64,000 bases of DNA from a virus (Duplodnaviria; Caudoviricetes), in the IMG/VR virus record IMGVR_UViG_3300043010_000145; one strand, written 5' to 3'. Of this stretch, positions 13,314-63,709 are shown piece after piece. The notes under the pieces were generated by a model, which was given only the letters and a program-made list of their open reading frames with translations, was not told where the DNA came from and searched no databases. The position numbers and the translations under genes were made by a program. Position 1 is the first letter of the stretch. Every line of letters starts with the position of its first letter.

Positions 13314-14729
13314 ATGCGAAAAATAGCAAAAGTTTTATTATCAATGAGCCTTACATTTGGCTCACTCTTTGCGGGTATTCTTCCCTCGATGGTATCTTCA
13401 CCTACGTTAACTGTGTTTGCTGCGGATACAACTGATAATTTTTATTTTTATTTATCTTCCGCAGACGTAAATACAGGTGTTGATAAAGTAACAACCTTTG
13501 TATCAAATGTAAACACAAATATATTCAAGGGAAATTCTGTTATAATCTGGGATACATCAAAGAAAGTATTAAATTTTAATAGAACCCTAGCAGTGAATAC
13601 AATGAAAGCAGATGCTTCTTCCACTGCAACTGATACAGGTCAAACTATGTTGACTAATTTGTTAAGTCAACTTACATCTTCTTATTTAACAGATAATGCA
13701 AAAACAGAATTAAAATCTTGGTTTTCTAACGTAATGAATTACAGTATTGCCACTGCATCTGTAACAACTGCTGTAAATGCAACAGCACCTGCACAGATTG
13801 CATGTTCGGGTACAATGACCAATGATGAAATGTCTGCACTTAATTTATCTGGTAAGGTTACTACAACTACCAATGATTCTAGTTCTGAAGCTAGTTCTAG
13901 TTCTAGCTCCACGTCCAGTGAGGATACAACAAGTACAAAAACAGTTGCAGGTCGGAAATCGACAGACCCTATTATACAATTAGGTGCTACGGCATATACA
14001 GAAGTTTCAGGTGTGATATCAAGTGCAAATACGTATATCACAGATGAGTTAGGTTCAGATGCTTCTCCAATTTTAGTTGGAGATGGCAGCAATGTTTCTT
14101 TTAGCGTATCAAATTATAAGAAGCTGTCTACTGCACAGAAGCAAGATTTTATGAAGAATACATTGTATTTGATTCGAAATTGTGGTGCATCTAGTCAGAC
14201 AATTTCTAAGTTTTATAATTGGGTAGCAGAGAGAGATAGCACGGCAGCAGCAGCCGTGAAAGTTCTCACGGAAGATTATGGCAGCGACTTTGATTCTGTG
14301 AACAATTGGATAGTTAGTAAAGGTTGGAATAAGGGCGTACAAAAACTATTAGGTGCGTTAACCTTACTTATTTTTATGGGACTAAGTATAAGTTTTGTTA
14401 CAGATTTGTTATATATCAATGTACCAACAATTCGTTTATTAATAGATGGTGCTGGTAAAGGTGTTGATTATGCAGCCGACCATACGAGACATGTTGGTGG
14501 TTTTCTAAAACATGCACATTGGTTAAGTAAAGAAGCAGTAGATGCAATACATGAAACGGAAGCCAACGGTGGCGAAACAAATTGGTGTTATTTAAAGAAG
14601 AAAGTTACTTCCATAACGATTATGAGTATTGTACTTGTTTTAATGATTACAGGTAATTTATATAAAGTAATTGGTTGGATAATTGATTACGTAACATATG
14701 TATTAAATATTTTCGGCTTTGGTATTTAG
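13314..14729 (+). CDS. Signal-peptide membrane protein, pilin-like paralogue 3
   Basis: Signal peptide and Ser/Thr-rich ectodomain, then TM-'DLLYINVPTIR'...'WLSKEAVDAI'-'YLKKK'-TM. Confidence 0.7.
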   Translation: MRKIAKVLLSMSLTFGSLFAGILPSMVSSPTLTVFAADTTDNFYFYLSSADVNTGVDKVTTFVSNVNTNIFKGNSVIIWDTSKKVLNFNRTLAVNTMKADASSTATDTGQTMLTNLLSQLTSSYLTDNAKTELKSWFSNVMNYSIATASVTTAVNATAPAQIACSGTMTNDEMSALNLSGKVTTTTNDSSSEASSSSSSTSSEDTTSTKTVAGRKSTDPIIQLGATAYTEVSGVISSANTYITDELGSDASPILVGDGSNVSFSVSNYKKLSTAQKQDFMKNTLYLIRNCGASSQTISKFYNWVAERDSTAAAAVKVLTEDYGSDFDSVNNWIVSKGWNKGVQKLLGALTLLIFMGLSISFVTDLLYINVPTIRLLIDGAGKGVDYAADHTRHVGGFLKHAHWLSKEAVDAIHETEANGGETNWCYLKKKVTSITIMSIVLVLMITGNLYKVIGWIIDYVTYVLNIFGFGI

Positions 14730-24791: not shown

Positions 24792-25793
24792 ATGTTAGAG
24801 AATGGAAAATTAACGAAGAATGGTTCTAATGCAATCAAGGGTTTTGCCATAATTGCCATGATTGCCTACCATTATTGGATTCGTGATTACGATTTTGGTA
24901 CACCTTTTGTAGATGCAAACACCTTATATTTAATTGGTAGAAGTCTGCGGTATTGTGTGGCTCTATTTGTATTCATTACAGGATATGGTTCATACATTTC
25001 GCTTCAAAACAAGAAAGACACAGACCTATTTCGCTGGGCAGTAAGAAGAATATTCAGCATTTGGAGCGGCTATATTTTCTTTGCCATACTTTGTATTTAT
25101 CTTGGAACTCGCTTGAATTGGCAAGAATGGGATTGGCATCGAATTTTTGAAGATTTTACAGCCATACATTACTCAGGCGACTACCGTGGGTATCTCAATA
25201 CTTGGTGGTATTTACCAACTGCTTATATTCTTGTGTTACTTGCACCATTCGTGAAGAAAGCAGTCGATAAATATGGTGCTTTCATCCTACTGTTATCTTT
25301 TGCTTTTCCTCTTATTTTCGATAAGACATATGAATGGTGGGAACCATGCTTTTTATGGCTGCCTATTTTAATTGAGGGAATGCTTGCTGCCAAACTAAGC
25401 CTACGAGTTTCTAAGAGTACTTTGTGTAACTTCATATTTGGTACTTTCTTACTTGCCGTAGGTACAGGAATTTGTATGATTTGCTTAGAGTTAGACGGCT
25501 TTGCTCTTTGGATTCGCTTCTGGCTTGCAACACCATTTCTCATTTACGGTATTATCAATATTTGTTCATGCAAGCCATTAAAGACTATTCTTGCTTTTCT
25601 GGGTAAGTATAGTTTCGGTATGTTTCTATTCCATTTATTGCTTTACAATGCATTCTTTGATGAACTTAATATCCTCAGCCAGCAGTATTGGTTGTTGCCC
25701 GTGCTGGTTGTTCTGCTAATTTCTTTGCTGGTATCTATTCCAATTACAATATTATCAAATTCTCTTTTCAAGAAATTAAGGGCTGCTATCTAG
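24792..25793 (+). CDS. Acyltransferase-3 (OafA-like) membrane O-acyltransferase, paralogue 1
   Basis: 'IKGFAIIAMIAYH', 'LFVFITGYG', 'WWY' and 'LGKYSFGMFLFH' motifs; about 10 TMs. Confidence 0.9.
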   Translation: MLENGKLTKNGSNAIKGFAIIAMIAYHYWIRDYDFGTPFVDANTLYLIGRSLRYCVALFVFITGYGSYISLQNKKDTDLFRWAVRRIFSIWSGYIFFAILCIYLGTRLNWQEWDWHRIFEDFTAIHYSGDYRGYLNTWWYLPTAYILVLLAPFVKKAVDKYGAFILLLSFAFPLIFDKTYEWWEPCFLWLPILIEGMLAAKLSLRVSKSTLCNFIFGTFLLAVGTGICMICLELDGFALWIRFWLATPFLIYGIINICSCKPLKTILAFLGKYSFGMFLFHLLLYNAFFDELNILSQQYWLLPVLVVLLISLLVSIPITILSNSLFKKLRAAI

Positions 25794-25890
25794 CAGCCCT
25801 TTTATTTCACCTTAGTGAAATATCTTTGTTTCTACCTATTGTGTACTGCACTTAGAGTATAATGAATAGGAAGAAAAGAGAGGGAATTTT

Positions 25891-26886
25891 ATGAATACTA
25901 CCATTTTGCAAAATGGTAAACTAACGAAGCAGGCATCTAATGCGATTAAAGGCTTCGCTATTATTGCCATGCTGATACATCATTTTTTAATCCGAAGCTA
26001 TGATTACAACACCTTTATCTTGCCTACAAATGTAATGCATGTATTTGGTCTTGCCCTTCGCATTTGTATACCATTATTCGTTTTCGTCACTGGCTATGGC
26101 TCATATCTTTCTTTAAAGAATGATACAAATATTTTCCAATGGGCAAAGCGAAGAATTTATAGCATCTGGAAAGGATATGTGCCTTTCGCCATTATCTGCA
26201 TACTCCTAGGTGTCGCAGTAGGTTGGAAAGCATACGATTGGCACAGAATTTTCGAGGATTTATCTGGTCTGCACCAAACTTCCGATTATCACGGATATAT
26301 CCTTTCTTGGTGGTATATGCCCACGGCTTATGTTTTAGTCCTAGTTGCACCATTTACAAAGAAGCTTGTAGATAAATACGGTGCTTACATATTTCTAGTT
26401 TCACTAATTCTGCCATTAGTTTTCGATTTTGAGTATACAGGCTTAGATGTACTGTTCTGCTGGCTGCCTGTTCTAATTGAAGGAATGCTCTTTGCAAAAG
26501 TGAAAATCAAACCACAGAATAATTTCGGGTTCGGGATTCTTTATATTTGCCTAGGCTTGCTCCTTTTTGGAATCTGCTTAGTTCTTGGCGGGTATATATT
26601 GTGGTTCCGTTTCTGGCTTACAACACCATTTTTCATTCTGGGCATTCTGAATATCTGCTCTTCAATAAAAATTACACAGCTCATAGCCTTTCTTGGCAAA
26701 TACAGTTTTGGAATGTATCTCTGCCATACACTTATTTATGATGTATTCTTTGAGTATATCAATGCACTTAGCAAAGTTTATTGGCTCTTGCCTGTAATTC
26801 TTACAGCAGGCATTTCTTTACTTGCAACCATCCTAATTTCCAAATTGTCATCTAAAATATTTGCCAAAATCGAAGCAGTATTCTAA
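25891..26886 (+). CDS. Acyltransferase-3 membrane O-acyltransferase, paralogue 2
   Basis: Same motifs as 24792. Confidence 0.9.
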   Translation: MNTTILQNGKLTKQASNAIKGFAIIAMLIHHFLIRSYDYNTFILPTNVMHVFGLALRICIPLFVFVTGYGSYLSLKNDTNIFQWAKRRIYSIWKGYVPFAIICILLGVAVGWKAYDWHRIFEDLSGLHQTSDYHGYILSWWYMPTAYVLVLVAPFTKKLVDKYGAYIFLVSLILPLVFDFEYTGLDVLFCWLPVLIEGMLFAKVKIKPQNNFGFGILYICLGLLLFGICLVLGGYILWFRFWLTTPFFILGILNICSSIKITQLIAFLGKYSFGMYLCHTLIYDVFFEYINALSKVYWLLPVILTAGISLLATILISKLSSKIFAKIEAVF

Positions 26887-27010
26887 GAATACTGCTTTTT
26901 ATTTACTTTTTCTCTTACCTGTTCCTCTAATTTAATTGGAACATTCTCAATACTTAAAGAAACAACTTATATACTAAGGTAGGATAGATAGGAGGCTTTA
27001 CAAGTATAAA

Positions 27011-27997
27011 ATGCTAGAAAATGGAAAATTAACCAAACAGGCATCTAATGCAATCAAAGGTTTAGCACTAATCACCATGTTGTTAAATCATTATCTTATC
27101 CGTAATTTTACCGTCAACACCTTACTTATACCTTCTGACATATTAATTCTTCTCGGAAAGAGTATGCGGTGTGCCGTGCCACTGTTCGTTTTTGTAACAG
27201 GTTATGGCTCATATTTTTCTTTACAAAACACTAACAACTATCAGAAATGGGCAAAAAGAAGAGTTCTCAGTATTTGGAAAGGCTACATTCCTTTCGCAAT
27301 TCTTTGTATCATAATCGGTGTTGCAGTCGGCTGGCAAGCATACGACTGGGCAAGACTATTTGAAGATTTCACAGGATTGCATAGATTTGCAGATTATGCG
27401 GGGTATCTTGGCTCGTGGTGGTATCTGCCCACAGCTTATGCTCTGGTACTTTTCGCACCACTTATCAAAAAGCTTGTCGATAAATACGGAACCTACACCC
27501 TAATTATTTCAATGATTTTACCGCTTGTATTCAATTTCCAATATACAGGTGTAGATGTCCTCTTTGCATGGCTGCCAGTTCTAATCGAAGGAATGCTTCT
27601 CGCAAAATGTAAAATAAAAGACCAGCACAACATTTTCCTAGGAATTTTGCAAATCATAGCAGGCATACTGATTTGCTGGCTCTGTTTTGCATGCGGTGGG
27701 TATTTGCTTTGGGTTCGTTTCTGGATTACAACTCCACTAATTGTTTTCGGCACTATTAATATCTGCACATCTAAGAAAACGGCGAAGTTTCTTGCTTTTC
27801 TTGGTAAATATAGCTTCGGAACTTATTTATTCCACCCTCTCCTATATGATGCATTCTTTGATTTTGAAGAGATGCTCGGTTCTGTATACTGGCTTGTGCC
27901 TGTAATAGTAACATTAGCCATTGCCCTTGCAGTTTCAGTTATCGTAACAAAACTATCAGAAAAGTTCTTTTATAAATTAGAGGCAGCATTCCACTAG
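27011..27997 (+). CDS. Acyltransferase-3 membrane O-acyltransferase, paralogue 3
   Basis: Same motifs as 24792; closest to paralogue 2. Confidence 0.9.
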   Translation: MLENGKLTKQASNAIKGLALITMLLNHYLIRNFTVNTLLIPSDILILLGKSMRCAVPLFVFVTGYGSYFSLQNTNNYQKWAKRRVLSIWKGYIPFAILCIIIGVAVGWQAYDWARLFEDFTGLHRFADYAGYLGSWWYLPTAYALVLFAPLIKKLVDKYGTYTLIISMILPLVFNFQYTGVDVLFAWLPVLIEGMLLAKCKIKDQHNIFLGILQIIAGILICWLCFACGGYLLWVRFWITTPLIVFGTINICTSKKTAKFLAFLGKYSFGTYLFHPLLYDAFFDFEEMLGSVYWLVPVIVTLAIALAVSVIVTKLSEKFFYKLEAAFH

Positions 27998-31631: not shown

Positions 31632-32019
31632 ATTGGTTTCCCTTTCTTCGATACCAACATTTTTACATACTTTGCTCAAAAAAGCAAGCAGAAACTACTA
31701 TTTTCGCCACTAATTCACACTCGGGGTATTCTCATCACAGCCACTTGCGAAATTTTCGCTTCTAGCACCATACCGTTACCAACTGTCCGCTTTTTCGTCT
31801 AGCACCTATACTCACGGGCTTTATTTCGTAAAAGCTCGGAAACTGCATTTTCCGAGCTTGCAGAACTTCGGAAAACACACTCTCCGCCGTTTTAGATTAG
31901 AAACAACTTTATCTATTTTTCTTCGGCAAAACCCAGTTCTTCTTACAGGCAATATCTTCCCCTTGCACCTTTCTTTTTAGTAAAAGTTGTATAATGAGTA
32001 TAGAAATGAGGACACTCCC

Positions 32020-32475
32020 GTGAAAAATTTTTGGAAAATCCTGATTGCCATAATCGTTCTAGTATTAGTATTTGTATTTACTGTCTGGACACCGCTGTTT
32101 CATCAAGATAAAGTTGTTAATACAACCAATCACAGCATGTATGTAATTGTAAAGATTGATGATGCAGAAGAATTAACAGACAACTGGCTGGAATTATCGG
32201 ACGGCAGATATGTGTATGCACAGAACGGACAGCCTTGGCAAGTAGCATCGGATGAAGAAGTAGATATTACCAAAGTATCTCTTGCAGGCACTACATCTTC
32301 ATACACGGTATACGGTATGAAAGACTATGAGGAAACGGATATTATCCACAATGACGAAACCGAAATCGAATACTCTAAGGAGTTTGGTAAGCGAGTTACC
32401 ACTTATAAAATTGTAGAATCTAATTCCCTTACTTTTGGCAAGAATGCTACCGAAACAGATTCCGCCGATGACTAA
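32020..32475 (+). CDS. Membrane-anchored extracellular hypothetical protein
   Basis: GTG after GAGG; N-terminal TM, acidic body and a downstream terminator. Confidence 0.75.
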   Translation: MKNFWKILIAIIVLVLVFVFTVWTPLFHQDKVVNTTNHSMYVIVKIDDAEELTDNWLELSDGRYVYAQNGQPWQVASDEEVDITKVSLAGTTSSYTVYGMKDYEETDIIHNDETEIEYSKEFGKRVTTYKIVESNSLTFGKNATETDSADD

Positions 32476-32542
32476 AAAAAAGCAAGCAGCTACGCTGCTT
32501 GCTTTTTTCTTCTCGGTCTTTTGCCAGTATAGAACAAAGTCA

Positions 32543-32633
32543 GGAAACATCCCCCGCCCGTGCGGGGCAAATAGGCCTTGTACAGATTGCATACTTTTAG
32601 CATAGGAAACATCCCCGCCCGTGCGGGGCTAAT
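32543..32633 (-). CRISPR. Cas-less type I-E-like mini-array: 2 repeats and 1 spacer
   Basis: The minus-strand repeat ATTAG-CCCCGC-ACGG-GCGGGG-ATGTTTCC (29 nt, 32633-32605) has the 5+6+4+6+8 layout of I-E repeats. A second copy lies at 32572-32543 (30 nt). The spacer is 32 nt (32573-32604). Confidence 0.8.
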
Positions 32634-32799
32634 AAATTCCACTGGCAACTAAACAAGTAAAGCATTGCAGTAAACGTGCACTTTTACTGACCTATATCAT
32701 TTGCTAGCTTTAAATGATGTAGGATTTCCCTGCATATGCTCACTTGATTGTTTCTTGCATAAGCAACATAATGTATAATGCTTTTACTTGTATGATTAA

Positions 32800-32827
32800 A
32801 GTATACCACTAAAATTACAATAAGCAA
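32800..32827 (-). promoter_or_regulatory. Sigma-A promoter facing the mini-array (leader ~160 nt)
   Basis: TTGCTT-16 nt-TATACT with an extended TG on the minus strand. No ORF lies between it and the array. Confidence 0.6.
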
Positions 32828-33622
32828 GAAGAATATGAAAGTTTAGCTAAATTTTTTCAGTACATTTTAAGCAAAAGCACAGTTTTCAACTGTACTCCTT
32901 TTCTTCTTTCTTTTTTCTCTCTTTGCTCTCTTTTACAGTACTCTATTTTTGTACCGAATGCAATTTTACAAAAAAAGACCTTATCCTAGTCGATAAGATT
33001 AGTTCAAATAATAAGCATCAGATACTTCTTTAACGATTTCTCGTACAGATTGCATACTTTTCGTGTAGCTATACGGATTATGCACCAAGCTGAAACTCTG
33101 CTTTCCGTGTAGTTTTAAGGTATGCCCAACCATTTTCTCTAAGGTTTTTCTTTCCTTTTGCATACCGTTGTCATCACCATACAACACATCTTCTTTTACA
33201 GCTTGCATGGTTTTCTCAAAGTACTTTGCATTTTCAGCTTGCTGAAAATGTTCTTCTAATGTAAGAAGTTTTGCAAAACCTTTCTCTAAATGTATGAGCT
33301 GTCCTTTGAGAACTTTTGCGGCTGCTTCATTCAGATTGGTTAAATCGTAACTTCCGCTAGTTTCTTTGTAAACTCCTTCGTATTGCTCCTTGCTTACATT
33401 TCTATTTACAGGCAAGAAATAGCGGCCAGTAGTAGTTTCCAGAACGACTTTAATGGGGTATTGTTCTTCAATTTCTTTTGTAGTAGTTAGCATCAAATTC
33501 CTCTAACTCCTTTCTTTAAGTAATAATAAACTAATTACATATAATATGCAAGAAGAATATTAAAGTTTAGCTAAATTTTTCAGTACATTTTAAGCAAAAA
33601 GCACAGTTTTTCAACTGTGCTT
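32824..33622. repeat. ~72-bp direct repeat pair (32824-32895 and 33548-33620): terminator plus promoter-upstream module
   Basis: GCAAGAAGAATAT.AAAGTTTAGCTAAATTTTT(T)CAGTACATTTTAAGCAAAA(A)GCACAGTTTT(T)CAACTGT occurs twice. Confidence 0.9.
32999..33496 (-). CDS. Hypothetical protein containing a partial protospacer match to the adjacent mini-array
   Basis: 165-aa ORF with an AAAGGAG/GAGG RBS and a TTGCAT-17-TATTAT promoter (33551-33523). Confidence 0.8.
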   Translation of the reverse strand: MMLTTTKEIEEQYPIKVVLETTTGRYFLPVNRNVSKEQYEGVYKETSGSYDLTNLNEAAAKVLKGQLIHLEKGFAKLLTLEEHFQQAENAKYFEKTMQAVKEDVLYGDDNGMQKERKTLEKMVGHTLKLHGKQSFSLVHNPYSYTKSMQSVREIVKEVSDAYYLN

Positions 33623-33655
33623 CTTCCTATATTTCTATTCTTCCGTTCTTTTATC

Positions 33656-45783: not shown

Positions 45784-47340
45784 TTGGTGATTCTTGTGAT
45801 ACCAGAAATCGGATTGGATATTTGGGCGAAGAATACAGACCGTAACCGCTATATGCAAGAAAGTTTTCGACCTACATTCACAAGATACGTTTGTGGAAAT
45901 ACAGAGGACGAGTATAACGATGTGTGTGCTTCATTAAATGCACAAATAAAATCACATCAAGAGATTACGGTATTCATCGAGGGAAACCCAGTCTTTGAGC
46001 CTGATTTGTCTGTTTTACAGCAGCTAAAATCAGAGCTTCCTAAAATGAATCTGTTAAATTTAACAAATGATGATTTAAGGCTCTTTACAGATGATAGAGT
46101 AAATACTTTATTTTTGCGAGCTTTAAATTTCTTATTGAAAGAGCAAAAACTTGCGAATAAATCTGCACAAGAAAACTTTGTTAGTACAATCGTTGTCTAT
46201 GCTCTTAGATACTTGCCAAAGTTGAAGTTTTCCGATGAAGAAACCTGCAAAGTTGTGCAGTACGGTACTTGTGATGATAGAGGAAAGAATTTTCTTTATC
46301 TTTGTCATTTAATGGGTATGGATGTGGTTAGCTTAACACCAATGGTGGATAACGATACTTGGCCTTCTATGTGTCAAGTCATTAAATACAATCGCATGCT
46401 TCGTCAATATCCATGGGAACAAAGATGCAAACTCGGAGTTGTTCATAACCAATACCAAACTTCCACTAGTTTAGCTGCTAAGAATGTGCAGTCTGTCCTT
46501 TTTGAAGGTGATACAAATTTCCGTCCTTGGAGTTTTCGAGAAGCTACAATCGAGCCTACTCTTTTAATTTCCACAGAAGCGGATATTGATATTTCTTGGA
46601 ATGAGCAAGCCCGTATGCGAGAAGGTTTCAAAGCAAGTGTTGAGCAGAAGATTTGTGTAATTCCGCATTTCTTTTATCTCTATGACGGTATCTGTAACGA
46701 TATGAATGTATATCGTGAGAAATTGCACCGTGCAACACATGTGAAAACTTGTTGTTTTGATGCCGTAGGTGGTAAGAAATTAGCTAAGCCGATACCTTCC
46801 TCTATTGCTGCAAGATTGATGTCTCAGGGTATGCAAGGAAAAGTATTCTCCTTAGACAAACTTTGGAGATTAGACTGGTATCCGTATACAGATTTGCCTG
46901 TTGATACACAACAACGAATTATTGGTGTTATCAATAAAATTATGGAAAACGGCAGACATATCTACCGTGGAACTTTAGATGAGCATTCCAAAGCAACCTT
47001 TGTAAGTTATGCTTTCGGTTTAAGCGATACAATTCTGAGTATGATTGACAATTTTGATTGTCCGTATGATGTGCCAAAAGTTGTCTTGTTATTGCAAGGA
47101 AAAGCTTTTCTTGATGACGGAACTTGCTTAATTCTTGGCTTGCTTTCACTTCTTGGCTTTGATATTGCGGTATATTCACCAGCAGGGAGAAGTGGTTTGT
47201 TGAAAGTGATTTCTTCCGAACAATGTTGCCATTTCCGTGGGGATAGAACTGTAACAGATTATCAGTTGCAACTTCCACCAGAACAGCAACCGCAACAAGA
47301 ACAGAAACGAAAAAGCTGGTTACAGGAGCTATTCGAGTGA
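45784..47340 (+). CDS. YceG-like Ter-cluster protein
   Basis: 'RPWSF...W.EQARMREGF...IPHFF...DG' and 'FDCPYDVPKVV...LLSLLGFDIAVYSPAG' motifs; telA and terD lie nearby. Confidence 0.7.
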   Translation: MVILVIPEIGLDIWAKNTDRNRYMQESFRPTFTRYVCGNTEDEYNDVCASLNAQIKSHQEITVFIEGNPVFEPDLSVLQQLKSELPKMNLLNLTNDDLRLFTDDRVNTLFLRALNFLLKEQKLANKSAQENFVSTIVVYALRYLPKLKFSDEETCKVVQYGTCDDRGKNFLYLCHLMGMDVVSLTPMVDNDTWPSMCQVIKYNRMLRQYPWEQRCKLGVVHNQYQTSTSLAAKNVQSVLFEGDTNFRPWSFREATIEPTLLISTEADIDISWNEQARMREGFKASVEQKICVIPHFFYLYDGICNDMNVYREKLHRATHVKTCCFDAVGGKKLAKPIPSSIAARLMSQGMQGKVFSLDKLWRLDWYPYTDLPVDTQQRIIGVINKIMENGRHIYRGTLDEHSKATFVSYAFGLSDTILSMIDNFDCPYDVPKVVLLLQGKAFLDDGTCLILGLLSLLGFDIAVYSPAGRSGLLKVISSEQCCHFRGDRTVTDYQLQLPPEQQPQQEQKRKSWLQELFE

Positions 47341-49298
47341 GTAAGTTAACATTAGGAAGCTTATTTGACGGTTCAGGTGGTTTTCCTCTTGCAGCTGAAT
47401 TATCAGGTATTAAATCTGTATGGGCTTCCGAGGTTGAACCGTTTCCCATAGCTGTTACTAGGAAAAATTTTCCAAATATGAAACAGTTGGGTGATGTGCG
47501 GAAAATAGATGGTGCAAAGATAGAACCCGTAGATATTATTACTTTTGGTAGCCCTTGTTTTCCAAAAGGTACACTTGTTCTTACAAAGAAAGGCTATGTA
47601 CCTATTGAAAAAATTTCTACGGAAGATTATGTACTTACACATACAGGAAATTGGCATAGAGTACTTCAGACTGGTTCAAAAGAGGCAAATACTGTTCTAT
47701 TGCATGGCTGCCATCAAGGTTTGGAATGTACACCAAATCATCCAATTTATTCTGCTGAGCTTATCTCTAAGAAAGCAATAGAGGGTACAAATACATATTT
47801 TGTGAATGAACCTACTGCGGAACATACTTGGCTGGCTGCTAATGATATGTTGGGGAAGTTATGGGCTGTACCAAAATGTATTAAAGAAATTGTAGCTATG
47901 CCTAGAGATTTTTCTTTTGATGAAATGCATGAGTTTGGTTTTTCTATTACTGAAGATTCTCACTTAGAATCTTGGATTTATACTATGTCTACTGATTTAC
48001 AGCATGCATTATTAAAAGGTATTATAGATAAAGTTGGTTCATATGAAGCAGAAAGCACATTTCAGCTTGTATTTAAATCACATCATCTAGCGGAGTCTAC
48101 ACGTTTACTCGCTGAAATATTGAATTATTCAACTACTGTTTCTTATTATGATAATTTATACCATTTGCTTATTGCTAGAATTCGTCCTGAAACAAGATGT
48201 GATGATAATTTGCATTCTTGGTATTTGGTGAATGATATTGAAAAGCTTGCGTACACTAAAACCGTATATAACTTAGAAGTTGAAACGGATAATAGCTATA
48301 TTGCAAATAATATTGTTGTACATAATTGTCAGGATTTGAGTGTTTCAGGTAAGCGTGCTGGTTTAGAAGGTAAGCAATCAAGCCTTTTTCTTGAAGCAAT
48401 TCGTATTGTAAAAGAAATGCGGGAAGCAACAAGTAATACCAAACCTAGATATATTGTTTGGGAAAATGTTTGTTTTATAAAAGATACTCTGATTACAACA
48501 CCAAATTCGTATGTACCAATTCAAAATATACATATTGGAGATATGGTTCGCACACATAAGGGTACATTTGAACAAGTGCAAGGTGTACAGTGTACAAAAA
48601 ATGTGCCAACTTATACTTTGTCTACTTTATCAAATACTGTTACTGCAACTGGTGAGCATCCTTTTCTTGTTCGGAAGAAAGATAGTAAGCCAGTTTGGAA
48701 GGAGCTTTCTAAGATTTCTGAAAATGAGTATATTTCATATACATTGAATGATTCTAATCTTGCACATATATCTGATTTACTAAATAACATACTTACTAAA
48801 CATACTTCTGCTAATTCCACAGATTATTTTATTTCTGAGAATAGATTGTGGGAGAAAGTTGTTTCAGTAAAGCATGCAAGTATTCAAACTGTATATAATA
48901 TAACCGTAGAAAGAGAACATACATATGAAGCAAACGGTATCACAGTTCACAACTGCGGAGCATTCTCAAGCCATAACGGAGAAGATTTCCGAACCGTCCT
49001 CGAAGAAATTGCAAAAGTCAAAGACCCCGAAGTTTCAATACCTAAATCTGAAAAGTGGGAACAGTCCGGCTGCATCATGGCAGACAATTACAGTATTGGA
49101 TGGCGAGTTCTCGATGCTCAATATTGGGGAGTTCCCCAAAGAAGAAGCAGAGTCTTCGTTGTCGCAGATTTTGCTGGAACAGGTGGCGAAGAAATATTAT
49201 TTAAGTCCGAAGGCCTGTCAGGGTATTCTGCGGAGGGCTTTAAACAAAAACAAGAAATTGCCAAACAATATGGCAGAGATTCTTCAAAAACAGGCTAA
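47337..49298 (+). CDS. C5 cytosine DNA methyltransferase, N-terminal part (motifs I-VIII), with two inteins
   Basis: 'SLFDGSGG', 'GSP|CQD', 'WENV|CG' and 'GVPQRRSRVF' motifs; 235 aa after removing the inteins. Confidence 0.9.
   Translation: MSKLTLGSLFDGSGGFPLAAELSGIKSVWASEVEPFPIAVTRKNFPNMKQLGDVRKIDGAKIEPVDIITFGSPCFPKGTLVLTKKGYVPIEKISTEDYVLTHTGNWHRVLQTGSKEANTVLLHGCHQGLECTPNHPIYSAELISKKAIEGTNTYFVNEPTAEHTWLAANDMLGKLWAVPKCIKEIVAMPRDFSFDEMHEFGFSITEDSHLESWIYTMSTDLQHALLKGIIDKVGSYEAESTFQLVFKSHHLAESTRLLAEILNYSTTVSYYDNLYHLLIARIRPETRCDDNLHSWYLVNDIEKLAYTKTVYNLEVETDNSYIANNIVVHNCQDLSVSGKRAGLEGKQSSLFLEAIRIVKEMREATSNTKPRYIVWENVCFIKDTLITTPNSYVPIQNIHIGDMVRTHKGTFEQVQGVQCTKNVPTYTLSTLSNTVTATGEHPFLVRKKDSKPVWKELSKISENEYISYTLNDSNLAHISDLLNNILTKHTSANSTDYFISENRLWEKVVSVKHASIQTVYNITVEREHTYEANGITVHNCGAFSSHNGEDFRTVLEEIAKVKDPEVSIPKSEKWEQSGCIMADNYSIGWRVLDAQYWGVPQRRSRVFVVADFAGTGGEEILFKSEGLSGYSAEGFKQKQEIAKQYGRDSSKTG
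47556..48326 (+). mobile_element. Intein 1 (257 aa) at the catalytic Pro-Cys, with a LAGLIDADG remnant
   Basis: Begins CFPKGTLV, has 'CTPNHPIY', ends 'VYNLEVETDNSYIANNIVVHN|C'. 'LLKGIIDKVGS' is a degenerate endonuclease motif. Confidence 0.92.
48471..48953 (+). mobile_element. Intein 2 (161-aa mini-intein) directly after the ENV motif
   Basis: Begins CFIKDTLI, has 'ATGEHPF', ends 'VYNITVEREHTYEANGITVHN|C'. Confidence 0.92.
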
Positions 49299-51299: not shown

Positions 51300-52535
51300 A
51301 TGAAACCTTATACACATCTTGTAATGGTAAATAATGATAAGAACAACTACAAATTCTATGATATGTATGTTGAGAATTATACGGTTCGTTGTGTTTATGG
51401 ACGAATTGGTGCTGGAAGACAACAGCAGAAAGTGTATTCCCTTAGTGAATTCGATAAAATATATAACTCTAAAATAAGAAAAGGATATGTAGACCAGACA
51501 GATTATGTTGTGGAATCCACATCACAGCAGCAAACGGTTCTAAATGAAGAAAAGAAAGAAAAAGTAAAGAACGAAGCCAAGGTAACAGATGAACAGATAG
51601 AACTCTGGTATTTTCTTAAAACTTTAACAGACAATGCCAATCGCCGAGTTTTCACCAATGTCGGAGCAATTAGCAGAGCGGGTATCCGTCATGCCAAAGA
51701 ATTGCTTGAAGAAATGAAATACCATGCCAGTAAAGGTGATGTAAATTCTTTTAATGAGTGCATTATGGAAATAATGGCTATTTGCCCAAGAAATGTATCA
51801 GGCAACGGACAATATGGTGTTCAATCTTGGTTGACAGATATTTCTTATGATGCAGATGTGCAAGCTCGAATGATGCAGAGAATCATAAATCGTGAGGAGA
51901 ACATTATTCTTTCCATGAGTTCTCAGCTTGCTTACAATAACAGCAGTATTATTGTCGATAACCAAGAAGTCGGGTATATCACAGATACGGTTAAAGAAGC
52001 TACACCATATCAAGAACAGATTGTTCGTAAACATCTGACCGATTCTTTAAACAAAAAAGTTTACAAAATCTATCGTGTCATTCCAGAAGAACAAGGCAAA
52101 AAATACAAATTCTATTGCGATAAGTATGATATTCACAAAAAGAAACTCTTATGGCACGGCAGCCGTAATGAAAACTGGTTGAGTATCATTGAAACTAGCT
52201 TATCATTAAATCCAAAAGCAAAAATCACAGGCCGAATGTTCGGAAATGGTATATACTTTGCTAACAATCCTCGTAAGAGTTTCGGGTATACATCTAGCGA
52301 AAGTGCCTATTGGACGAATGAACATAGTGATTATGCGATTATGGGTTTATATGAAACTGCTTATGGTAATCCGCACGATTGCTATGCACCACATCACTAT
52401 TCCCAAAGAGAATTAAATGCAGAACATAAGAATTGTGTACATGCACACAAAGGACAGTATCTCTACAATGATGAAATCATTTATTATGATGAAGATGCAA
52501 TTTGCTTGCAATATATCGTAGTTTTCTATGCCTAA
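51300..52535 (+). CDS. WGR-domain poly(ADP-ribose) polymerase-like ADP-ribosyltransferase
   Basis: N-terminal 'NNYKFY...YGRIG...KIRKGY'; catalytic 'LLWHGSR', 'GRMFGNGIYFA', 'KSFGY' and 'NDEIIYY' give the H-Y-E triad. Confidence 0.88.
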   Translation: MKPYTHLVMVNNDKNNYKFYDMYVENYTVRCVYGRIGAGRQQQKVYSLSEFDKIYNSKIRKGYVDQTDYVVESTSQQQTVLNEEKKEKVKNEAKVTDEQIELWYFLKTLTDNANRRVFTNVGAISRAGIRHAKELLEEMKYHASKGDVNSFNECIMEIMAICPRNVSGNGQYGVQSWLTDISYDADVQARMMQRIINREENIILSMSSQLAYNNSSIIVDNQEVGYITDTVKEATPYQEQIVRKHLTDSLNKKVYKIYRVIPEEQGKKYKFYCDKYDIHKKKLLWHGSRNENWLSIIETSLSLNPKAKITGRMFGNGIYFANNPRKSFGYTSSESAYWTNEHSDYAIMGLYETAYGNPHDCYAPHHYSQRELNAEHKNCVHAHKGQYLYNDEIIYYDEDAICLQYIVVFYA

Positions 52536-57797: not shown

Positions 57798-60431
57798 TTG
57801 ACAAAAGAAAATTACGGCTTGACCACCGAGCAAGCCGCAGAGAGCAAGAAGAAATACGGGACGAATGCTCTTTCTGTTAAAGAAGGCGACAGTTTCTGGA
57901 AAATCTACTTAGGTACTTTTGAAGATACTTGGATTCGTATTCTCTTAGCTGCTGCAATTATCGACTTATTGATTTATGTACTTGGTATTTTCTGGCCTCA
58001 GTATTTCTCTGGGGATTTAATTGAAGTTGCTGGTGTAGTATTTGCTATGCTTCTTTCTACGGGAGTTTCTGCTCTGACAGAATGGAAGAACAACAAGCAA
58101 TACAACACACTGCAAGCAGAAGCAAGTAAAATCAAGACAAAAGTATATCGTGACGGGGAACTTCACGAAATGCTTATTGACGACCTTGTAAAAGGAGATG
58201 TAGTTCTGCTTCAAGCAGGCGACCAAGTACCAGTTGACGGTTTAATTCTGAAAGGTTCTTGCGAAGTTTCACAGGCTGCCTTGAACGGAGAAAGTGAACC
58301 ATGCAAGAAAGAAGTAGCACCTGAAACCTTAGACCGAGATACGATTGATGAAGATTATGTCAATCCATACTGGGTATATCGTGGTTCTGTTATTACAGAA
58401 GGTGAAGTACTTGTCGAAGCTCGTGTAATTGGTGATTCTACTGTATTAGGTACGATTGCTGATGCCATTGGCGAGAAAACAAAACCTAGTCCGTCTGCTG
58501 AAAAAATGGACAAACTGGCTGGTTCTATTGGTAAATTAGGCTTATACGGTGCAACATTAGCTGTTATTGCTAACATTGTCATTACTCTTATGAGTGCGGA
58601 CTTATCTACTTATACAATCGGTTCTTATCTGTCCTTGGGTATTGCTAACTTAATGCTCTTTGTTGCTATTATCATTATGGCTGTACCAGAAGGTTTGCCA
58701 ATGATGAACAGCCTTGTTGCAAGTATGAACTGTGGACGAATGATTAAAGAAAATGTACTCGTTCGCCATGCAGAATCCATTGAAACAACAGGGTATATGA
58801 ATGTATTGTTCTCTGATAAAACAGGAACAATTACAAAAGGGCAACTCGAAGTAGTAGATATCATTGATGTAAACGGAAATGTAGTTCCAGCTGCTGACCG
58901 TATCAACCAAGATAATGTGATTGCACAAGAACTTGTAAAAGGACTTGGCTTGAACAATGATGCTATGGAAGCAGACGGAAAAGCTATTGGTTCTAACGGT
59001 ACTGACCGTGCATTACTGAACTTCTTGATTGAAAATGATAAATATGAAACTCTTGACCGTTCCCTTGTTGGCGAAAAAGAACCATTCACATCTGCTACAA
59101 AATGTGCAAGAGTGCATACACCAGACGGTATTTATTGGAAAGGTGCACCAGAAGCTGGCTTAGAAGTTGCTAAATATTGCATGTACGATGATGGTGTAAT
59201 TAAACCATTGAACAATCATCGTATGGAACAGATTACAAAAGCAATGAAAGACCAAATGGGCAGAGCCATGCGACTGCTTCTGATTATGAAAGAAACACCG
59301 GGCTTTGAATCACCTATCTTCTTGGGTATCGTATGTATTCGTGATGAAGTTCGTCCTGATGTAGTTCATACTGTTGAGCAAATGAACACAGCAGGCTGTG
59401 CCGTTGTTATGGTTACAGGTGATTCTGCTGATACTGCACAAGCTATTGCAAGAGATGCTGGCATTTTAAAACACGAATCTGATGTAGTTTTAACTTCCAA
59501 ACAACTCGCTGCCATGTCAGATGATGAAGTAAAAGAAGTATTACCATTCCTTCGTGTTGTAAGTCGTGCTAGACCAATGGATAAACGTAGATTAGTCCAG
59601 CTTGCCCAAGACATCGACATGGTTTGCGGTATGACGGGTGATGGTGTCAATGATGCTGCCGCTTTATCTGCTGCTGATGTTGGCTTTGCTATGGGTGACG
59701 GAACTTCTGTTGCAAAAGATGCTTCTGACATCGTTATTGTTGACAACTCTCTGACTTCTATTGGAACTGCTATGAAATATGGTCGTACTATGACAAAATC
59801 AGTCCAGAAATTCTTGATTTTCCAGCTGACTGTCAATATTACAACTATTCTGATGAATGTACTTGCACCATTCTTAGGCTTCTCCGAACCATTTACAATC
59901 GTGCAAATTCTCTGGATTAACTTAATTATGGATACACTGGCTGCTCTTGCTTTTGGTGAAGAACCAGCCTTAGACAGATATATGGACGAGAAACCAGTTT
60001 CCCGCAATGCTTCTGTATTAACACATTACATGAAGTCCTCTATTGGAACTGCTGCTATCTATATCGCTGTTATTTCTGTATTAGGTTACTGCACAAACTG
60101 GCTGAATACTTATCTGTCAATCAGTACAGACAAGGGTATTCGTAGTTTTGTATTCTGCACATTCATCTATGCAGTAATCTTCAATGCATTCAATACTCGC
60201 TCTTCCGATTACAACATCTTCGAGGGTATTACGAAAAACAAGAAGTTCCTCTATGTAATGGGTTCTATCTTTGTTCTGCAAACTCTCTTAATCTATGTAG
60301 GCGGAGCCGTATTCGGTACTGTACCAATGGATGCTCAAACATTGCTTGCAAGCATTGGACTTGGTTTCTTAATTATTCCAGTTGATATGGTTAAGAAATT
60401 TATCTATAAACACTTTGTAAGCGAAGAATAA
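57798..60431 (+). CDS. P-type cation (Ca2+, PMCA-like) transporting ATPase
   Basis: 'LNGES', 'VPEGLP', 'DKTGT', 'KGAPE', 'TGD' and 'GDGVND' motifs; TTG 57798 follows AAAGGA. Confidence 0.93.
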   Translation: MTKENYGLTTEQAAESKKKYGTNALSVKEGDSFWKIYLGTFEDTWIRILLAAAIIDLLIYVLGIFWPQYFSGDLIEVAGVVFAMLLSTGVSALTEWKNNKQYNTLQAEASKIKTKVYRDGELHEMLIDDLVKGDVVLLQAGDQVPVDGLILKGSCEVSQAALNGESEPCKKEVAPETLDRDTIDEDYVNPYWVYRGSVITEGEVLVEARVIGDSTVLGTIADAIGEKTKPSPSAEKMDKLAGSIGKLGLYGATLAVIANIVITLMSADLSTYTIGSYLSLGIANLMLFVAIIIMAVPEGLPMMNSLVASMNCGRMIKENVLVRHAESIETTGYMNVLFSDKTGTITKGQLEVVDIIDVNGNVVPAADRINQDNVIAQELVKGLGLNNDAMEADGKAIGSNGTDRALLNFLIENDKYETLDRSLVGEKEPFTSATKCARVHTPDGIYWKGAPEAGLEVAKYCMYDDGVIKPLNNHRMEQITKAMKDQMGRAMRLLLIMKETPGFESPIFLGIVCIRDEVRPDVVHTVEQMNTAGCAVVMVTGDSADTAQAIARDAGILKHESDVVLTSKQLAAMSDDEVKEVLPFLRVVSRARPMDKRRLVQLAQDIDMVCGMTGDGVNDAAALSAADVGFAMGDGTSVAKDASDIVIVDNSLTSIGTAMKYGRTMTKSVQKFLIFQLTVNITTILMNVLAPFLGFSEPFTIVQILWINLIMDTLAALAFGEEPALDRYMDEKPVSRNASVLTHYMKSSIGTAAIYIAVISVLGYCTNWLNTYLSISTDKGIRSFVFCTFIYAVIFNAFNTRSSDYNIFEGITKNKKFLYVMGSIFVLQTLLIYVGGAVFGTVPMDAQTLLASIGLGFLIIPVDMVKKFIYKHFVSEE

Positions 60432-60444
60432 GCCAAATACAAAC

Positions 60445-60476
60445 AACCGTGTGCAACAGCACACGGTTTTCTTTTT
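60445..60476 (+). terminator. Intrinsic terminator
   Basis: AACCGTGTGC-aaca-GCACACGGTT followed by a T-tract. Confidence 0.85.
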
Positions 60477-60507
60477 GCACAATTCTAAAATTTCTTTCTA
60501 TTTTTAG

Positions 60508-60536
60508 TTGACAACACTTTATACATACTATATACT
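60508..60536 (+). promoter_or_regulatory. Near-consensus sigma-A promoter
   Basis: TTGACA-17 nt-TATACT. Confidence 0.75.
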
Positions 60537-60542
60537 ATGAGT

Positions 60543-60735
60543 GTATCTACTAAAAGAAACGCTGTAGATATATTTAGATTTTGCAAAATGTTTCAACACA
60601 TTCGGTACTTCTGTACCTAATGACAACTGTTCCGTCCAATTGCAGTTTATGAAATATTTTCGCCTAATCATTCGTTAAATTAAATATCCTCTTGAATTAG
60701 CGGTGTGGCCATCAAACACATCGCTTTTTCTTTTT
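60543..60735 (+). ncRNA. Candidate ~190-nt small RNA
   Basis: Bounded by the promoter above and a terminator (AGCGGTGTG...CACATCGCT + T-tract, 60699-60735). No RBS-led ORF. Confidence 0.45.
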
Positions 60736-61012
60736 CCTTTTTCTTGCTCTCCCTCTCCTATTCCTAATTCTGCCTGTACTTATATCGCTTCTGCTTGCAC
60801 CAGCTTGCATGGGTATGCCAGTCAAGTCTTCCTATCTAGGATTAGCTTATCTAATATTAGTCTATCTAATATTAGATTATCTGCACATCTTCGTGTGCAC
60901 CTAAATTTGCTAACAGAAAATTTTTCTAAGGAAAACTGCTATATAAAAGGGGAAGTATGGAAAAAGACTAGGGCTGTCTACAAGCTTTTTACTTAGCTAA
61001 AAAGCCTTATTT

Positions 61013-62075
61013 GTAGCCTTTTCTAGCCTTTTTGCTTGTCTGCAACAAACTTCTCGCAAGCATTTTATGATTTCTGCAACCAGATTTTTCTTTGCACAAG
61101 CTAACAGCTATAACCAGAGATGATTGCTCCAATGCTCCAATGCTCCAATCTCAATCCCAACTCTATCTTCGCCCAGAAACCGCTTGCCCCAAGTTGTCTG
61201 CAACCAGAAAGAACTGTGTCTGTTAGCACGAAGTGTTTTGTTGCAAATTTCTTTGGCTGTTTTTGTCTTGGCGAAGATTTTTTATTGACAGAAAATATGG
61301 GCTAATAGGTTTATATTTAGCTTTCTTTTAGCTTTCTTATAGCTAATAAGATAGGCGGGCGACCTCGTTTTCGTTTCACTCAAACGGACTTCCCGCCTAT
61401 CGTTGTAGGTAGTTAAACCAAGGCAAAGCTAAATTTAGGCATAGATAAACCAAGGTAAAGCTAGAACTAGCCATAGCTAAATCAAGGCAAAGCTAGAACT
61501 AGCCGTAGCTAAACCAAGGCAAAGCTAGAACTAGCCGTAGCTAAATCAAGGCAAAGCTAGAACTAGCCGTAGCTAAGATAGGCGAGCAACCTAGCCTGTT
61601 TTCGTTTCACTACAACAGTCGTGGCTAAAAGCACCCCTAAACACGAAGTGTTCTAGTGGTGCTTACAGGCATATGTAAAGCATATGCCTGTCTGCTGCCA
61701 CCCTGACCGCTCGCCTCCGCCCCTCACAGTATTACTTTTCGGGGCTATCGTTGTAGGTAGCTAAAACAAGGTGTAGCCTTTTTGCTTGTCTGCAACAAAC
61801 TCTTTGCAAGCATTTTACGATTTTCTTCAACCAGAGATGTCTGCTCCAATACATCAATACATCAATACTCCAATGCCAATTCCATTCTTCAACCAGAAAC
61901 CGCTTGCCCCTTATTAGCTATACAAATCAATAAATTGATTTATATAGCTATTCTGCAACCGGAAAGAACCTGTGCCTGTTGGCACGATTTGATTTGTTGC
62001 AAATATCTTTGGCTGTTTTTGTCTTGGCGAAGATTTTTATTGATATAAAATATGGAATGCTAGGGATAGATTTAG
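61013..62075. repeat. Imperfect ~300-bp duplication (about 61013-61320 and 61773-62075), with a third partial start at ~62180
   Basis: Shared blocks TTTTGCTTGTCTGCAA, CCAGAAACCGCTTGCCCC and CTTTGGCTGTTTTTGTCTTGGCGAAGATTTTT. Confidence 0.8.
61410..61576. repeat. 32-bp tandem repeat x5 (iteron-like)
   Basis: TAGCTAAA(C/T)CAAGGCAAAGCTAGAACTAGCCG at 61410, 61442, 61474, 61506 and 61538. Confidence 0.9.
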
Positions 62076-62429
62076 TTTTCTTATAATACTTACGATAGGC
62101 GAGCAACCAATTTTATTCCGCTTTGCTTCATAAAATCGCCGCTCGCCTATCGTTGTAGGTAGCTAAAACAACATATATCCTTTTTGCTTGTCTGCAAATA
62201 TCCCCTATGACTGGTGCCTTCCGCAGCCAGATTTTTTGCCCAAGCCTACATCTGCACCCAATCTAACTAGGCGGAACTCCCCAGCACTTCGTGTAGCTAA
62301 TCAGTCAAGCTATTGACTGATTAGCTCCGTCTCTATCTCTAAATCTGAACGATTAGCCACACGAAGCAAGATGAACTTGCTTCATATGGCTGAGAATTTG
62401 CTATAATAAATATAGAAAGGAGCACCACC

Positions 62430-62957
62430 ATGCCCAGCAAGAGAACCCCAGCCCATTTCTACACGAGAGGGAAATTTGGGAAGCGACTTCGAGAAGTCGC
62501 TGACCAAGAGAACCCCTACTTATATTCACAAGGAAGGTATGCAACGAAGTTGCAACCTTCCGACCTCCCCAATACTTACATATCTATTCACAGCAGAAGC
62601 TTATGGTACACCGAAGGCTTTATCCAAACAGCGAATGTCGTAGACATCTGCTACATACCGCTGCATCTAAATCATCTATTCAAAGATGACTATTTATACA
62701 TCAGTTATTCCGCAGACCGACCTCTGCAAATCGAGCCAACCCGATATGGCATTCCCGAATGCCTAAGCTACGACATATGTATCTGTGGCAATGACATACC
62801 GAAGCTGCTAGAAGCCATCGCTCTCAACTCCCCACACTGCCATAATCTCTCTGAGACCAAAGCCTCTGTGAAAGAGAAAGTAGAATGGTTTGCCACTCGT
62901 TACCCCGAGAGCTCTAAATCCATCAATTATCTGCATGAGCACTATGACTGGTTATAA
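62430..62957 (+). CDS. Hypothetical protein embedded in the repeat region
   Basis: AAAGGAG RBS and TG-C-TATAAT upstream; 175 aa. Confidence 0.75.
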   Translation: MPSKRTPAHFYTRGKFGKRLREVADQENPYLYSQGRYATKLQPSDLPNTYISIHSRSLWYTEGFIQTANVVDICYIPLHLNHLFKDDYLYISYSADRPLQIEPTRYGIPECLSYDICICGNDIPKLLEAIALNSPHCHNLSETKASVKEKVEWFATRYPESSKSINYLHEHYDWL

Positions 62958-63150
62958 CCAGTCATTTTTATTACCTATCTCCAATATTCTCGCCTGTCTT
63001 TTATCGCCTGTCCTCTATCTCGCCTATCTGCTCTCGCCTGTCTGCTCTCGCCCGTCTATCCTTGTTGTAGTTCAGCCAGCCTATCCTATCCACCTAGCAC
63101 CACTTCTTCGGGTATCTTGTCGTAGCAGATGTTTCTGCCACCTTCTGCCT

Positions 63151-63220
63151 TGCCTTATCTTGCCTTATCTTGCCTTATCTTGCCTTATCTTGCCTTATCT
63201 TGCCTTATCTTGCCTTATCT
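63151..63220. repeat. 10-bp tandem repeat TGCCTTATCT x7
   Basis: Seven perfect copies. Confidence 0.95.
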
Positions 63221-63362
63221 TGCATCATTTCTATCTTGTAGGGTACTTTTGTCTTGGCTTAGCTTTATTCTCGCCTATCTCTATCTTGGCTTAGCTCTAT
63301 CTCTGCCTAGAAAGGCGGCCACGGTTCTCATTACATTTCGAACCTAAGACCCGCCTTTGTCT

Positions 63363-63493
63363 AGGCAAAGCAATCATTCAGGCAAAGCAATCATTCAGGC
63401 AAAGCAATCATTCAGGCAAAGCAATCATTCAGGCGAAGTAATTATTCAGGCGAAGTAATTATTCAGGCGAAGCAATTATTTAGGCGAAGTAAT
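63363..63493. repeat. 17-bp tandem repeat AGGC(A/G)AAG(C/T)AAT(C/T)ATTC x7-8
   Basis: Copies every 17 bp from 63363; a related array lies at 63859-63941. Confidence 0.92.
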
Positions 63494-63709
63494 CTCTTGG
63501 CGAGTAATTATTTAGGAGAAGATACACCAAATGCTTGAAGTCCAGCACACTTCATCGGGTATCTTGTCATAGCAGATGTTTCAACAGACTGGTTATCTTG
63601 CCTTGCCTTGCACTATCTTGCCTTATTCCTATCTTGCAGTGTACTTCTGTTTTGTATTAGATTTACTCTTGCCTATCTTTATCTCAGTCTAGCTTTATTC
63701 TCGCCTATC

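Follow-up and report, generated by a model that had tools for sequence, protein, structure and literature searches.

A single-spacer array beside ORF165

The stretch of DNA analysed here, referred to below as the window, comprises the 64,000 nucleotides (nt) of IMG/VR virus record IMGVR_UViG_3300043010_000145 (Duplodnaviria; Caudoviricetes). Near its middle, on the minus strand, lies a small array with the shape of a type I-E CRISPR locus, followed at higher coordinates by a gene on the same strand, ORF165 (open reading frame, ORF, at 32999..33496), part of which the single spacer of the array resembles. As the initial annotation of the window had described, two repeats flank the spacer: a leader-proximal repeat of 29 nt at 32633..32605 (ATTAGCCCCGCACGGGCGGGGATGTTTCC), the 32-nt spacer itself at 32604..32573, recovered there as an exact string, and a distal repeat of 30 nt at 32572..32543, which is degenerate in carrying A4T and an extra G after the stem. 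The leader-proximal repeat consists of a CCCCGC stem, an ACGG loop and a GCGGGG stem followed by the 8-nt handle ATGTTTCC, and the repeat unit of the array is GCCCCGCACGGGCGGGGATGTTTC. Type I-E arrays are marked by spacers of about 32 nt and by repeats of 28-29 nt that have a G+C stem, a loop of 4 nt and a 5' handle of 8 nt, and all of these are found here, with a period of 61 nt; one spacer held between CRISPR repeats makes the array a mini-array. The repeat pair was recovered independently by a repeat search of the window, and a 25-nt repeat pattern with at most 3 mismatches gave no further copy there (0 copies in 100 shuffles). At the array locus, Rfam returned no CRISPR-DR family above threshold, only terminator-like partial hits.

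The array appears to form a transcription unit of its own. Its putative promoter (32800..32827, minus strand) has a -35 element TTGCTT at 32827..32822 separated by 16 nt from an extended -10 element, TGgTATACT, at 32808..32800; a generic sigma-70 scan of the window did not list this promoter, because the -35 element matches at only 3/6 positions. Between promoter and first repeat lies a leader (32634..32795, minus strand) predicted to fold into a structured RNA of about 130-160 nt, with a closing stem, a 12-bp hairpin with the loop GCTAGC and a 7-bp hairpin with the loop GTGCAC, and the predicted fold of the whole array transcript has a z score of -3.7. The distal repeat is followed by a 34-nt tail (32509..32542, minus strand) and then by a bidirectional intrinsic terminator with perfect 15-bp arms (32476..32508), itself the subject of terminator-type partial hits in Rfam, which closes both the array unit and a convergent gene at 31987..32475. 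The tail is possibly a second, terminator-capped guide; no significant target for it was found, the best match in 112 kb of the element (23/34) being within noise. On the promoter side, a module at 32816..32900 (minus strand) combines the terminator that ends ORF165 with the -35 element that starts the array unit. This module has a twin upstream of ORF165, at 33530..33645, with 91% identity over 87 nt, and the two are the only copies in the same 112 kb. A short-read Logan contig (L002) ends inside the leader, at the equivalent of window position 32673; this break coincides with the end of a 42-nt stretch that is identical in the array unit and in cassette 2, one of its two sister units introduced below. 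The break is repeat-induced and no sign of polymorphism of the array.

The relation between the spacer and ORF165 is far beyond chance. The spacer matches 33067..33036, inside the gene, at 25/32 nt with an exact run of 19 nt, as had been reported, and this is its best non-self match in 112 kb of the element. Three hundred shuffled spacers gave best window matches of 19-23, so that none (0/300) reached 25, and the chance expectation of a 19-nt exact run is about 5e-7 in 2 x 64 kb. The similarity ends exactly at both repeat borders and thus covers exactly the 32 nt of the spacer. Read in frame, the spacer encodes YAKSMQSVQG where the resident gene has YTKSMQSVRE; one of the codon changes is synonymous and the others are mostly conservative. 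Since the divergence is of this in-frame, mostly conservative kind, the source of the spacer was most likely a functional homologue of ORF165 and not a decaying duplicate. The spacer and the ORF165 mRNA have the same sense, again in agreement with the initial annotation, which had concluded that a CRISPR RNA (crRNA) from this array is not antisense to the gene.

The resident copy appears ill-suited as a target. Its seven mismatches to the spacer fall at positions 3, 4, 6, 26, 29, 30 and 31, and the seed mismatches at 3, 4 and 6, together with AGC in the place of the protospacer adjacent motif (PAM; 33070..33068), could be read from the sequence just as first described. The carrier's own site, which with its flank spans 33036..33070 on the minus strand, thus bears the differences expected of an orthologous site mutated against targeting, including those at seed positions 3 and 4. 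It lies 34 nt ahead of the stop codon, in the 3' part of the coding region.

ORF165 itself is an ORFan of 164 aa counted from its ATG (32999..33493, minus strand). It gave sub-threshold hits only in Pfam and no NCBIfam family; its neighbours in the ESM Atlas score 0.85 at most and are uninformative, and a single-sequence AlphaFold model has a predicted local distance difference test (pLDDT) score of 36.7 and no usable structure. The protein contains an internal repeat with the motif K(T/S)MQ(A/S)V(K/R)E, encoded at 33189-33220 and 33036-33067, and the spacer also resembles the upstream copy (33189-33220), at 21/32.

Two sister cassettes and the carrier element

The array unit, which we call cassette 1, is one of three paralogous cassettes, its two sisters lying about 39 and 73 kb downstream. 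The contig around the window was read by exact-protein look-ups from -9.9 kb to +121.5 kb, i.e., about 131 kb of a contig of at least 577 kb. Within this region the repeat unit occurs six times, always inside one of the three cassettes and in constant orientation relative to promoter and terminator. The promoter motif GTGGTATACT is conserved in all three (3/3).

Cassette 2 (L108:16148-16600, about 7.7 kb past the window end) starts with the GTGGTATACT promoter, and its leader, within which lies a full solitary repeat, is 79% identical to the cassette 1 leader. Next come, in order, a degenerate repeat, a spacer of 26 nt, a good repeat, a tail of 24 nt and a terminator. The spacer agrees with codons 3-11 of a divergent neighbouring ORFan of 233 aa at 22/26 positions, of which the first 15 are perfect, and the site is flanked by AAT. 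This combination of an AAT flank, 15 perfect bases and a 26-nt spacer aimed at codons 3-11 is the pairing described for Cracr, CreA and CreR guides, which are taken up below, and from its sequence cassette 2 looks like a regulatory guide of the kind that binds but does not cut.

Cassette 3 (L112, about 13567-13960; about 41.5 kb past the window end) keeps the promoter and contains a single repeat; its leader and the cassette 1 leader are 73% identical. Immediately after the repeat come 51 nt that correspond to the end of a neighbouring small gene, namely its final 17 codons plus the stop codon (identity 41/51, with three synonymous changes), and the cassette sits within a tandem family of paralogues of 62-66 aa. 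In the resident gene the site lies directly behind AAT, and its differences from the guide are at positions 1 and 3 of the latter. Judging from this arrangement, cassette 3 is probably a spacer-protospacer or insertion junction.

In each cassette, then, the guide resembles the cassette's own neighbour, and cassettes 2 and 3 show coding-type divergence like that of cassette 1. The AAT flank seen at the sites of cassettes 2 and 3 is missing from the resident site in ORF165, and for the tails that follow the last repeat the element offers no target. The sequences flanking the three leaders are unrelated. The leaders themselves share a predicted fold: RNAalifold gave 31 pairs across the three, one of them compensatory (CG to AU), and the loops GCTAGC and GTGCAC are invariant. 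That the promoter motif and the structured leader have been kept in three cassettes despite 21-27% divergence argues for selection. The leader matched no Rfam family, and searches of IMG/VR with the leader and with looser repeat patterns gave no matches. When the cassette leaders were compared with all type I-E loci considered here, no leader in common was seen; only the repeat-like part of the cassette 2 leader was matched, by Mitsuokella repeats.

The window is part of a large conjugative, plasmid-like element of low G+C content, pXO16-like and of Firmicute type. Pfam searches found genes typical of such mobile elements, namely a VirB4/DUF87-like ATPase, an FtsK/TcpA-type translocase, restriction-modification genes, TelA and TerD, and the element further carries giant BspA-type surface proteins and a PARP-like gene. 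The closest relatives of the VirB4-like protein, at 35.6% identity, are on 350-kb Bacillus thuringiensis plasmids. Contigs from several samples, ranging in length from 157 kb to 577 kb, carry the same DNA, with zero mismatches across overlaps; the source samples are JGI 3300035506 and 3300043085 (runs SRR11793927 and SRR11793928). A nucleotide search of PLSDB and INPHARED with the 2.1-kb locus gave no match.

No family of CRISPR-associated (cas) proteins was found by Pfam in any window ORF of at least 120 aa, which bears out the earlier statement that the window holds no cas genes. Over the wider region of about 131 kb, the cas6e, Cascade, cas3 and cas1-cas2 genes that would be cognate to a type I-E array were likewise not found, and the only cas-related genes met are two tandem Cas3'' proteins of 297 and 371 aa that consist of the HD domain only (L113:10001-12473, about 46.7 kb past the window end; PF18019, TIGR01596). 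They have no helicase and no other cas gene nearby, and lie about 78 kb from the array and about 5 kb from cassette 3.

Several other features of the element were recorded in passing. From window position 60431-64000 on to L106:19135, downstream of a P-type ATPase, about 5 kb at a raised G+C content of 0.39-0.43 is almost without called genes and without an Rfam family; a 175-aa ORF with a good ribosome-binding site at 62430-62957 was called only on two short contigs. At 47337-49298, a C5 cytosine methyltransferase is split by intein/Hint domains (Pfam DNA_methylase, Intein_splicing, Hint_2 and Vint). A protein with WGR and PARP catalytic domains is encoded at 51300-52535, with TelA on one side and, on the other, an AlwI-type endonuclease grouped with two Dam-type methylases, and tandem acyltransferase-3 paralogues occupy 24792-27997, the Pfam family Acyl_transf_3 being confirmed in two of them.

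Proposed exclusion between sibling elements and its alternatives

Promoter, leader and terminator all belong to the array unit itself, the spacer bears the marks of a diverged coding homologue of ORF165, and the resident copy has mismatches in the seed and a different PAM position. These features fit a model in which the array is an orphan type I-E mini-array that uses a Cascade encoded in trans to exclude sibling elements with another allele of ORF165, the carrier being spared by PAM and seed differences, and we put the probability of this reading at roughly 0.45. We infer the remaining parts of the model, i.e., processing, a Cas supplier, the existence of a rival allele, and interference. 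The extended -10 promoter would drive transcription of the structured leader and then of repeat, spacer and repeat, up to the intrinsic terminator. Cas6e and Cascade, supplied in trans by the host or by another part of the element, would cut at the repeat hairpins and yield a crRNA of about 61 nt with the handle AUGUUUCC. This crRNA would direct interference against close relatives carrying the other ORF165 allele, while the carrier's allele would escape through the PAM position and seed positions 3 and 4, with further differences at position 6 and at four distal sites. What results between sibling elements would be heterotypic exclusion, or incompatibility.

Exclusion by way of a host or distant Cascade was also what the initial annotation proposed. 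Of that proposal, the anatomy, the diverged coding spacer and the seed- and PAM-mismatched self copy have held up, and the predicted target and the predicted host array have failed to appear; the pattern agrees with that of virus-borne mini-arrays in the literature. For the target, a perfect protospacer had been anticipated in a related element; outside the array itself, none was found in IMG/VR, JGI metagenome contigs, PLSDB or INPHARED, and no relatives of the element were found there either. For the machinery, a type I-E system with a similar repeat had been expected in the host or in the rest of the element. Among 185,579 species genomes scanned with the pattern CCCCGC-N4-GCGGGGATGWWTCC, no candidate host of low G+C content (Firmicute-type) showed an array in which repeat and handle are those of cassette 1, and the handle was not seen as an array consensus in any low-G+C species genome scanned. 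Multi-copy matches to the pattern came from the high-G+C Actinobacteria Bifidobacterium gallicum and Saccharopolyspora soli and from a Bacillota metagenome-assembled genome with more than 50% G+C. The repeat is 23-24/29 identical to type I-E array repeats near cas6e (PF08798) in Mitsuokella jalaludinii, B. gallicum and S. soli. On the element, no Cascade or cas6e is among the genes called from -10 to +121 kb.

Two further look-alikes were followed up and set aside. A match to the repeat among metagenomes proved to be a degenerate type I-E array of an unrelated organism of 56% G+C. A single hairpin in Chitinophagaceae, ATTCGCCCCGCCCAGGCGGGGATGTTTCC (L059:1372-1400 and nine other loci), which is 26-27/29 identical to the repeat, gave the best look-alikes of the genome scan (27/29) and has conserved upstream and variable downstream sequence, was considered as a guide-RNA scaffold; its neighbours are NuoF and NuoD, so that it belongs to the intergenic regions of the nuo operon, and the likeness is a coincidence.

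The missing protospacer, the missing low-G+C host array and the lack of Cascade and cas6e within -10 to +121 kb all weigh against exclusion, and three further points do so as well. A search with the ORF165 protein among 5.8 billion clusters and 1.84 billion representatives returned only ORF165 itself. A self-match of 25/32 could provoke primed adaptation against the carrier; the cost that imperfect self-matches have through priming is discussed by Iranzo et al. (PMC7099407). In cassette 2, the perfect 15-nt seed and AAT flank on its own neighbour look regulatory and not self-sparing, and such an intact seed beside an intact PAM-like flank is not predicted by simple exclusion. The protospacer and host-array negatives are themselves weak evidence, because the element, ORF165 and the 233-aa gene are without relatives in these collections, i.e., the siblings and the host are unsampled; for ORF165 and the 233-aa gene, no homologue was found in 5.8 to 15 billion proteins. 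The initial annotation had named the absence of a better match and of a host system among the outcomes that would count against its proposal. Since neither a perfect protospacer nor a matching host array was found, part of that clause formally applies, with little weight.

Of the other explanations, the main one, though we consider it unlikely, is that the cassettes are anti-CRISPR or regulatory crRNA-like RNAs of the Racr or Cracr type. They would load the Cas6e or Cascade of a host type I-E system with RNAs encoded by the element, and so either sequester these proteins or make repressors of them, which would act on genes of the element or on host cas or toxin promoters; the likeness of spacer 1 to ORF165 would be historical. 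Such solitary repeats and mini-arrays are known from phages and plasmids, including type I-E arrays of two or three spacers with shortened spacers (PMC10651486; 10.1101/2024.10.29.618823). Cassette 2 favours this explanation, with its additional solitary repeat inside the leader and its degenerate first repeat. Its 26-nt spacer, whose site on the first codons of the divergent neighbour is flanked by AAT and matched perfectly over 15 PAM-proximal bases, carries the signature of binding without cutting. The tails, having no target on the element, could be aimed at the host. Cassette 1 suits it poorly. A Racr is a solitary repeat without a guide, whereas this array has two repeats and a spacer of full length (32 nt), the only solitary repeat being that in the leader of cassette 2. 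Moreover, in ORF165, the sole relative of spacer 1, there are seed mismatches and no AAT flank, and the matching stretch lies at the 3' end of a coding region and not in a promoter.

We give a little less credence still to the explanation that the spacer is an inactive relic, left by past adaptation or by spacer-protospacer recombination with a host array and still transcribed but put to no use by Cas proteins. The lack of a cognate cas operon in about 131 kb and of a matching array in any plausible low-G+C host among public genomes would follow naturally, as would the partial degeneration of the repeats. Cassette 3, in which a repeat runs straight into a copy of the final 17 codons and stop codon of a gene (41/51), appears to be a recombination junction and not an acquired spacer, and contigs from several samples are 100% identical, with no sign of spacer turnover. 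Against a relic stands the fact that three copies keep the promoter, the leader structure, at least one perfect hairpin, the handle and the terminator despite their divergence of 21-27%, which decay would not preserve.

A more speculative explanation, which we regard as very unlikely, makes the cassettes self-spreading. A rival allele that had been cut, or spacer-protospacer recombination, would be repaired from the cassette-bearing element, and both the cassette and the immune allele would be copied into the rival in the process. This would amount to a natural CRISPR-guided homing system or gene drive, with the same slim chance, and would explain why the cassettes adjoin the genes whose foreign allele they would target, as well as the closeness of spacer targets and arrays in viral mini-arrays. 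Cassette 3 resembles a homing junction in that its one repeat is in register with the 3' end and stop of the gene copy, starting right after the AAT flank.

A role for the mini-array as a cis regulator of ORF165, by a guide like CreA or CreR with which Cascade binds the resident gene without cutting it, seems to us highly improbable. The array does adjoin a partial target, as in CreTA and CreR modules (PMC8501985, PMC9458426), and cassette 2 looks like such a guide. Regulation of this kind calls for a PAM and for PAM-proximal pairing of at least about 9 nt at a promoter or gene start, and cassette 1 offers neither: seed positions 3 and 4 are mismatched, AGC stands in place of AAT, the pairing is central and distal, and the target is 34 nt before the stop codon. 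The regulatory guide that the initial annotation had offered among its alternatives is, if taken to act on ORF165, contradicted by the same seed mismatch, AGC flank and 3' target.

Finally, the idea that the hairpins are repetitive extragenic palindromic (REP)-like elements or terminators around a decayed fragment of a duplicated gene, and not derived from CRISPR, is largely refuted: although a generic scan scores both hairpins as terminator-like, the terminator-promoter module is duplicated on either side of ORF165 and a near-identical hairpin exists in Chitinophagaceae, REP elements occur in many dispersed copies, whereas the six units in 131 kb all lie in three homologous cassettes in fixed orientation, so that the dispersal named by the initial annotation as speaking against its proposal is not what was found; the similarity to ORF165 stops at the repeat borders after exactly 32 nt, spacing and handle are like those of type I-E, and the Chitinophagaceae hairpin between nuo genes is a coincidence.

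Comparison with known mini-arrays and related systems

If exclusion between sibling elements is indeed the function of the array, the mini-CRISPR weapon known from archaeal viruses and prophages would also act between giant conjugative elements of low-G+C bacteria, with borrowed type I-E machinery. The three cassettes would allow a comparison between a full-length spacer with an escaped self copy, a short repressor-like guide and a repeat-gene recombination junction. Proximity of spacer targets to the array has been noted in viral mini-arrays and left unexplained, and comparing the cassettes could explain why the spacers of mini-arrays so often match genes beside the array. The structured leader that the cassettes have kept is, like the three-cassette family itself, an additional feature of interest, and as an RNA it is uncharacterised.

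The nearest precedents are the Saccharolobus portogloboviruses SPV1 and SPV2 (Medvedeva et al. 2019, PMC6858448). Their mini-arrays hold 1-2 spacers, have leaders and are not accompanied by cas genes; the spacers match near-array regions in close relatives, and self-targeting is prevented by point mutations or deletions in the orthologous loci of the carrier. PMC7099407 belongs to the same published precedent. According to that paper's account of Faure et al. 2019, prophage mini-arrays target adjacent genes of closely related viruses and spare the carrier. An exclusion function of mini-arrays has also been reviewed (PMC11656645). The array described here shares with the SPV1/SPV2 and prophage mini-arrays a spacer number of 1-2, a promoter-bearing leader, the absence of adjoining cas genes, the match to a gene near the array, the mutated own copy and the proposed role, which is heterotypic exclusion of close relatives by means of the host's Cas proteins. 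It differs from SPV1/SPV2 in that its carrier is a Firmicute-type conjugative plasmid-like element and not a virus, that the repeat is I-E-shaped, that neither a targeted sibling nor a host array bearing an identical repeat is known, and that a structured leader is common to three cassettes.

Racrs (Camara-Wilpert et al. 2023, PMC10651486) and Cracrs (bioRxiv 10.1101/2024.10.29.618823) resemble the cassettes as repeat-mimicking RNAs encoded in small units of their own, with degenerate repeats and sometimes short arrays, and type I-E examples exist. Racrs are solitary repeats without a guide, in contrast to the full-length spacer 1, and the spacers of Cracrs pair PAM-proximally with host cas or toxin promoters, whereas the only known relative of spacer 1 is its own seed-mismatched gene. 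With CreA and CreR (PMC8501985, PMC9458426, PMC10120712) the array shares two degenerate repeats and a spacer-like segment beside a partly matched gene; those guides lie inside cas loci and pair PAM-proximally with promoters, whereas here there is no nearby cas locus and the pairing is incompatible with binding of Cascade to the resident gene.

The use of CRISPR guides against competitors by a conjugative element recalls the type IV CRISPR-Cas systems of plasmids (Pinilla-Redondo et al. 2019/2020, PMC7038947), which, unlike the cassettes with their RNA part only, come with longer arrays and with an effector complex that the plasmid itself encodes. Canonical arrays of type I-E (Escherichia coli type; Mitsuokella jalaludinii, Bifidobacterium gallicum, Saccharopolyspora soli) have the same 29-nt repeat with a CCCCGC/GCGGGG stem, 4-nt loop, 8-nt 5' handle, 32-nt spacer and 61-nt period, and differ from the array in that it has a single spacer and no adjacent cas operon. 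Taken together, these comparisons suggest that the array is probably a new example of a kind of system already described, found in a new type of carrier, and not a new kind of system.

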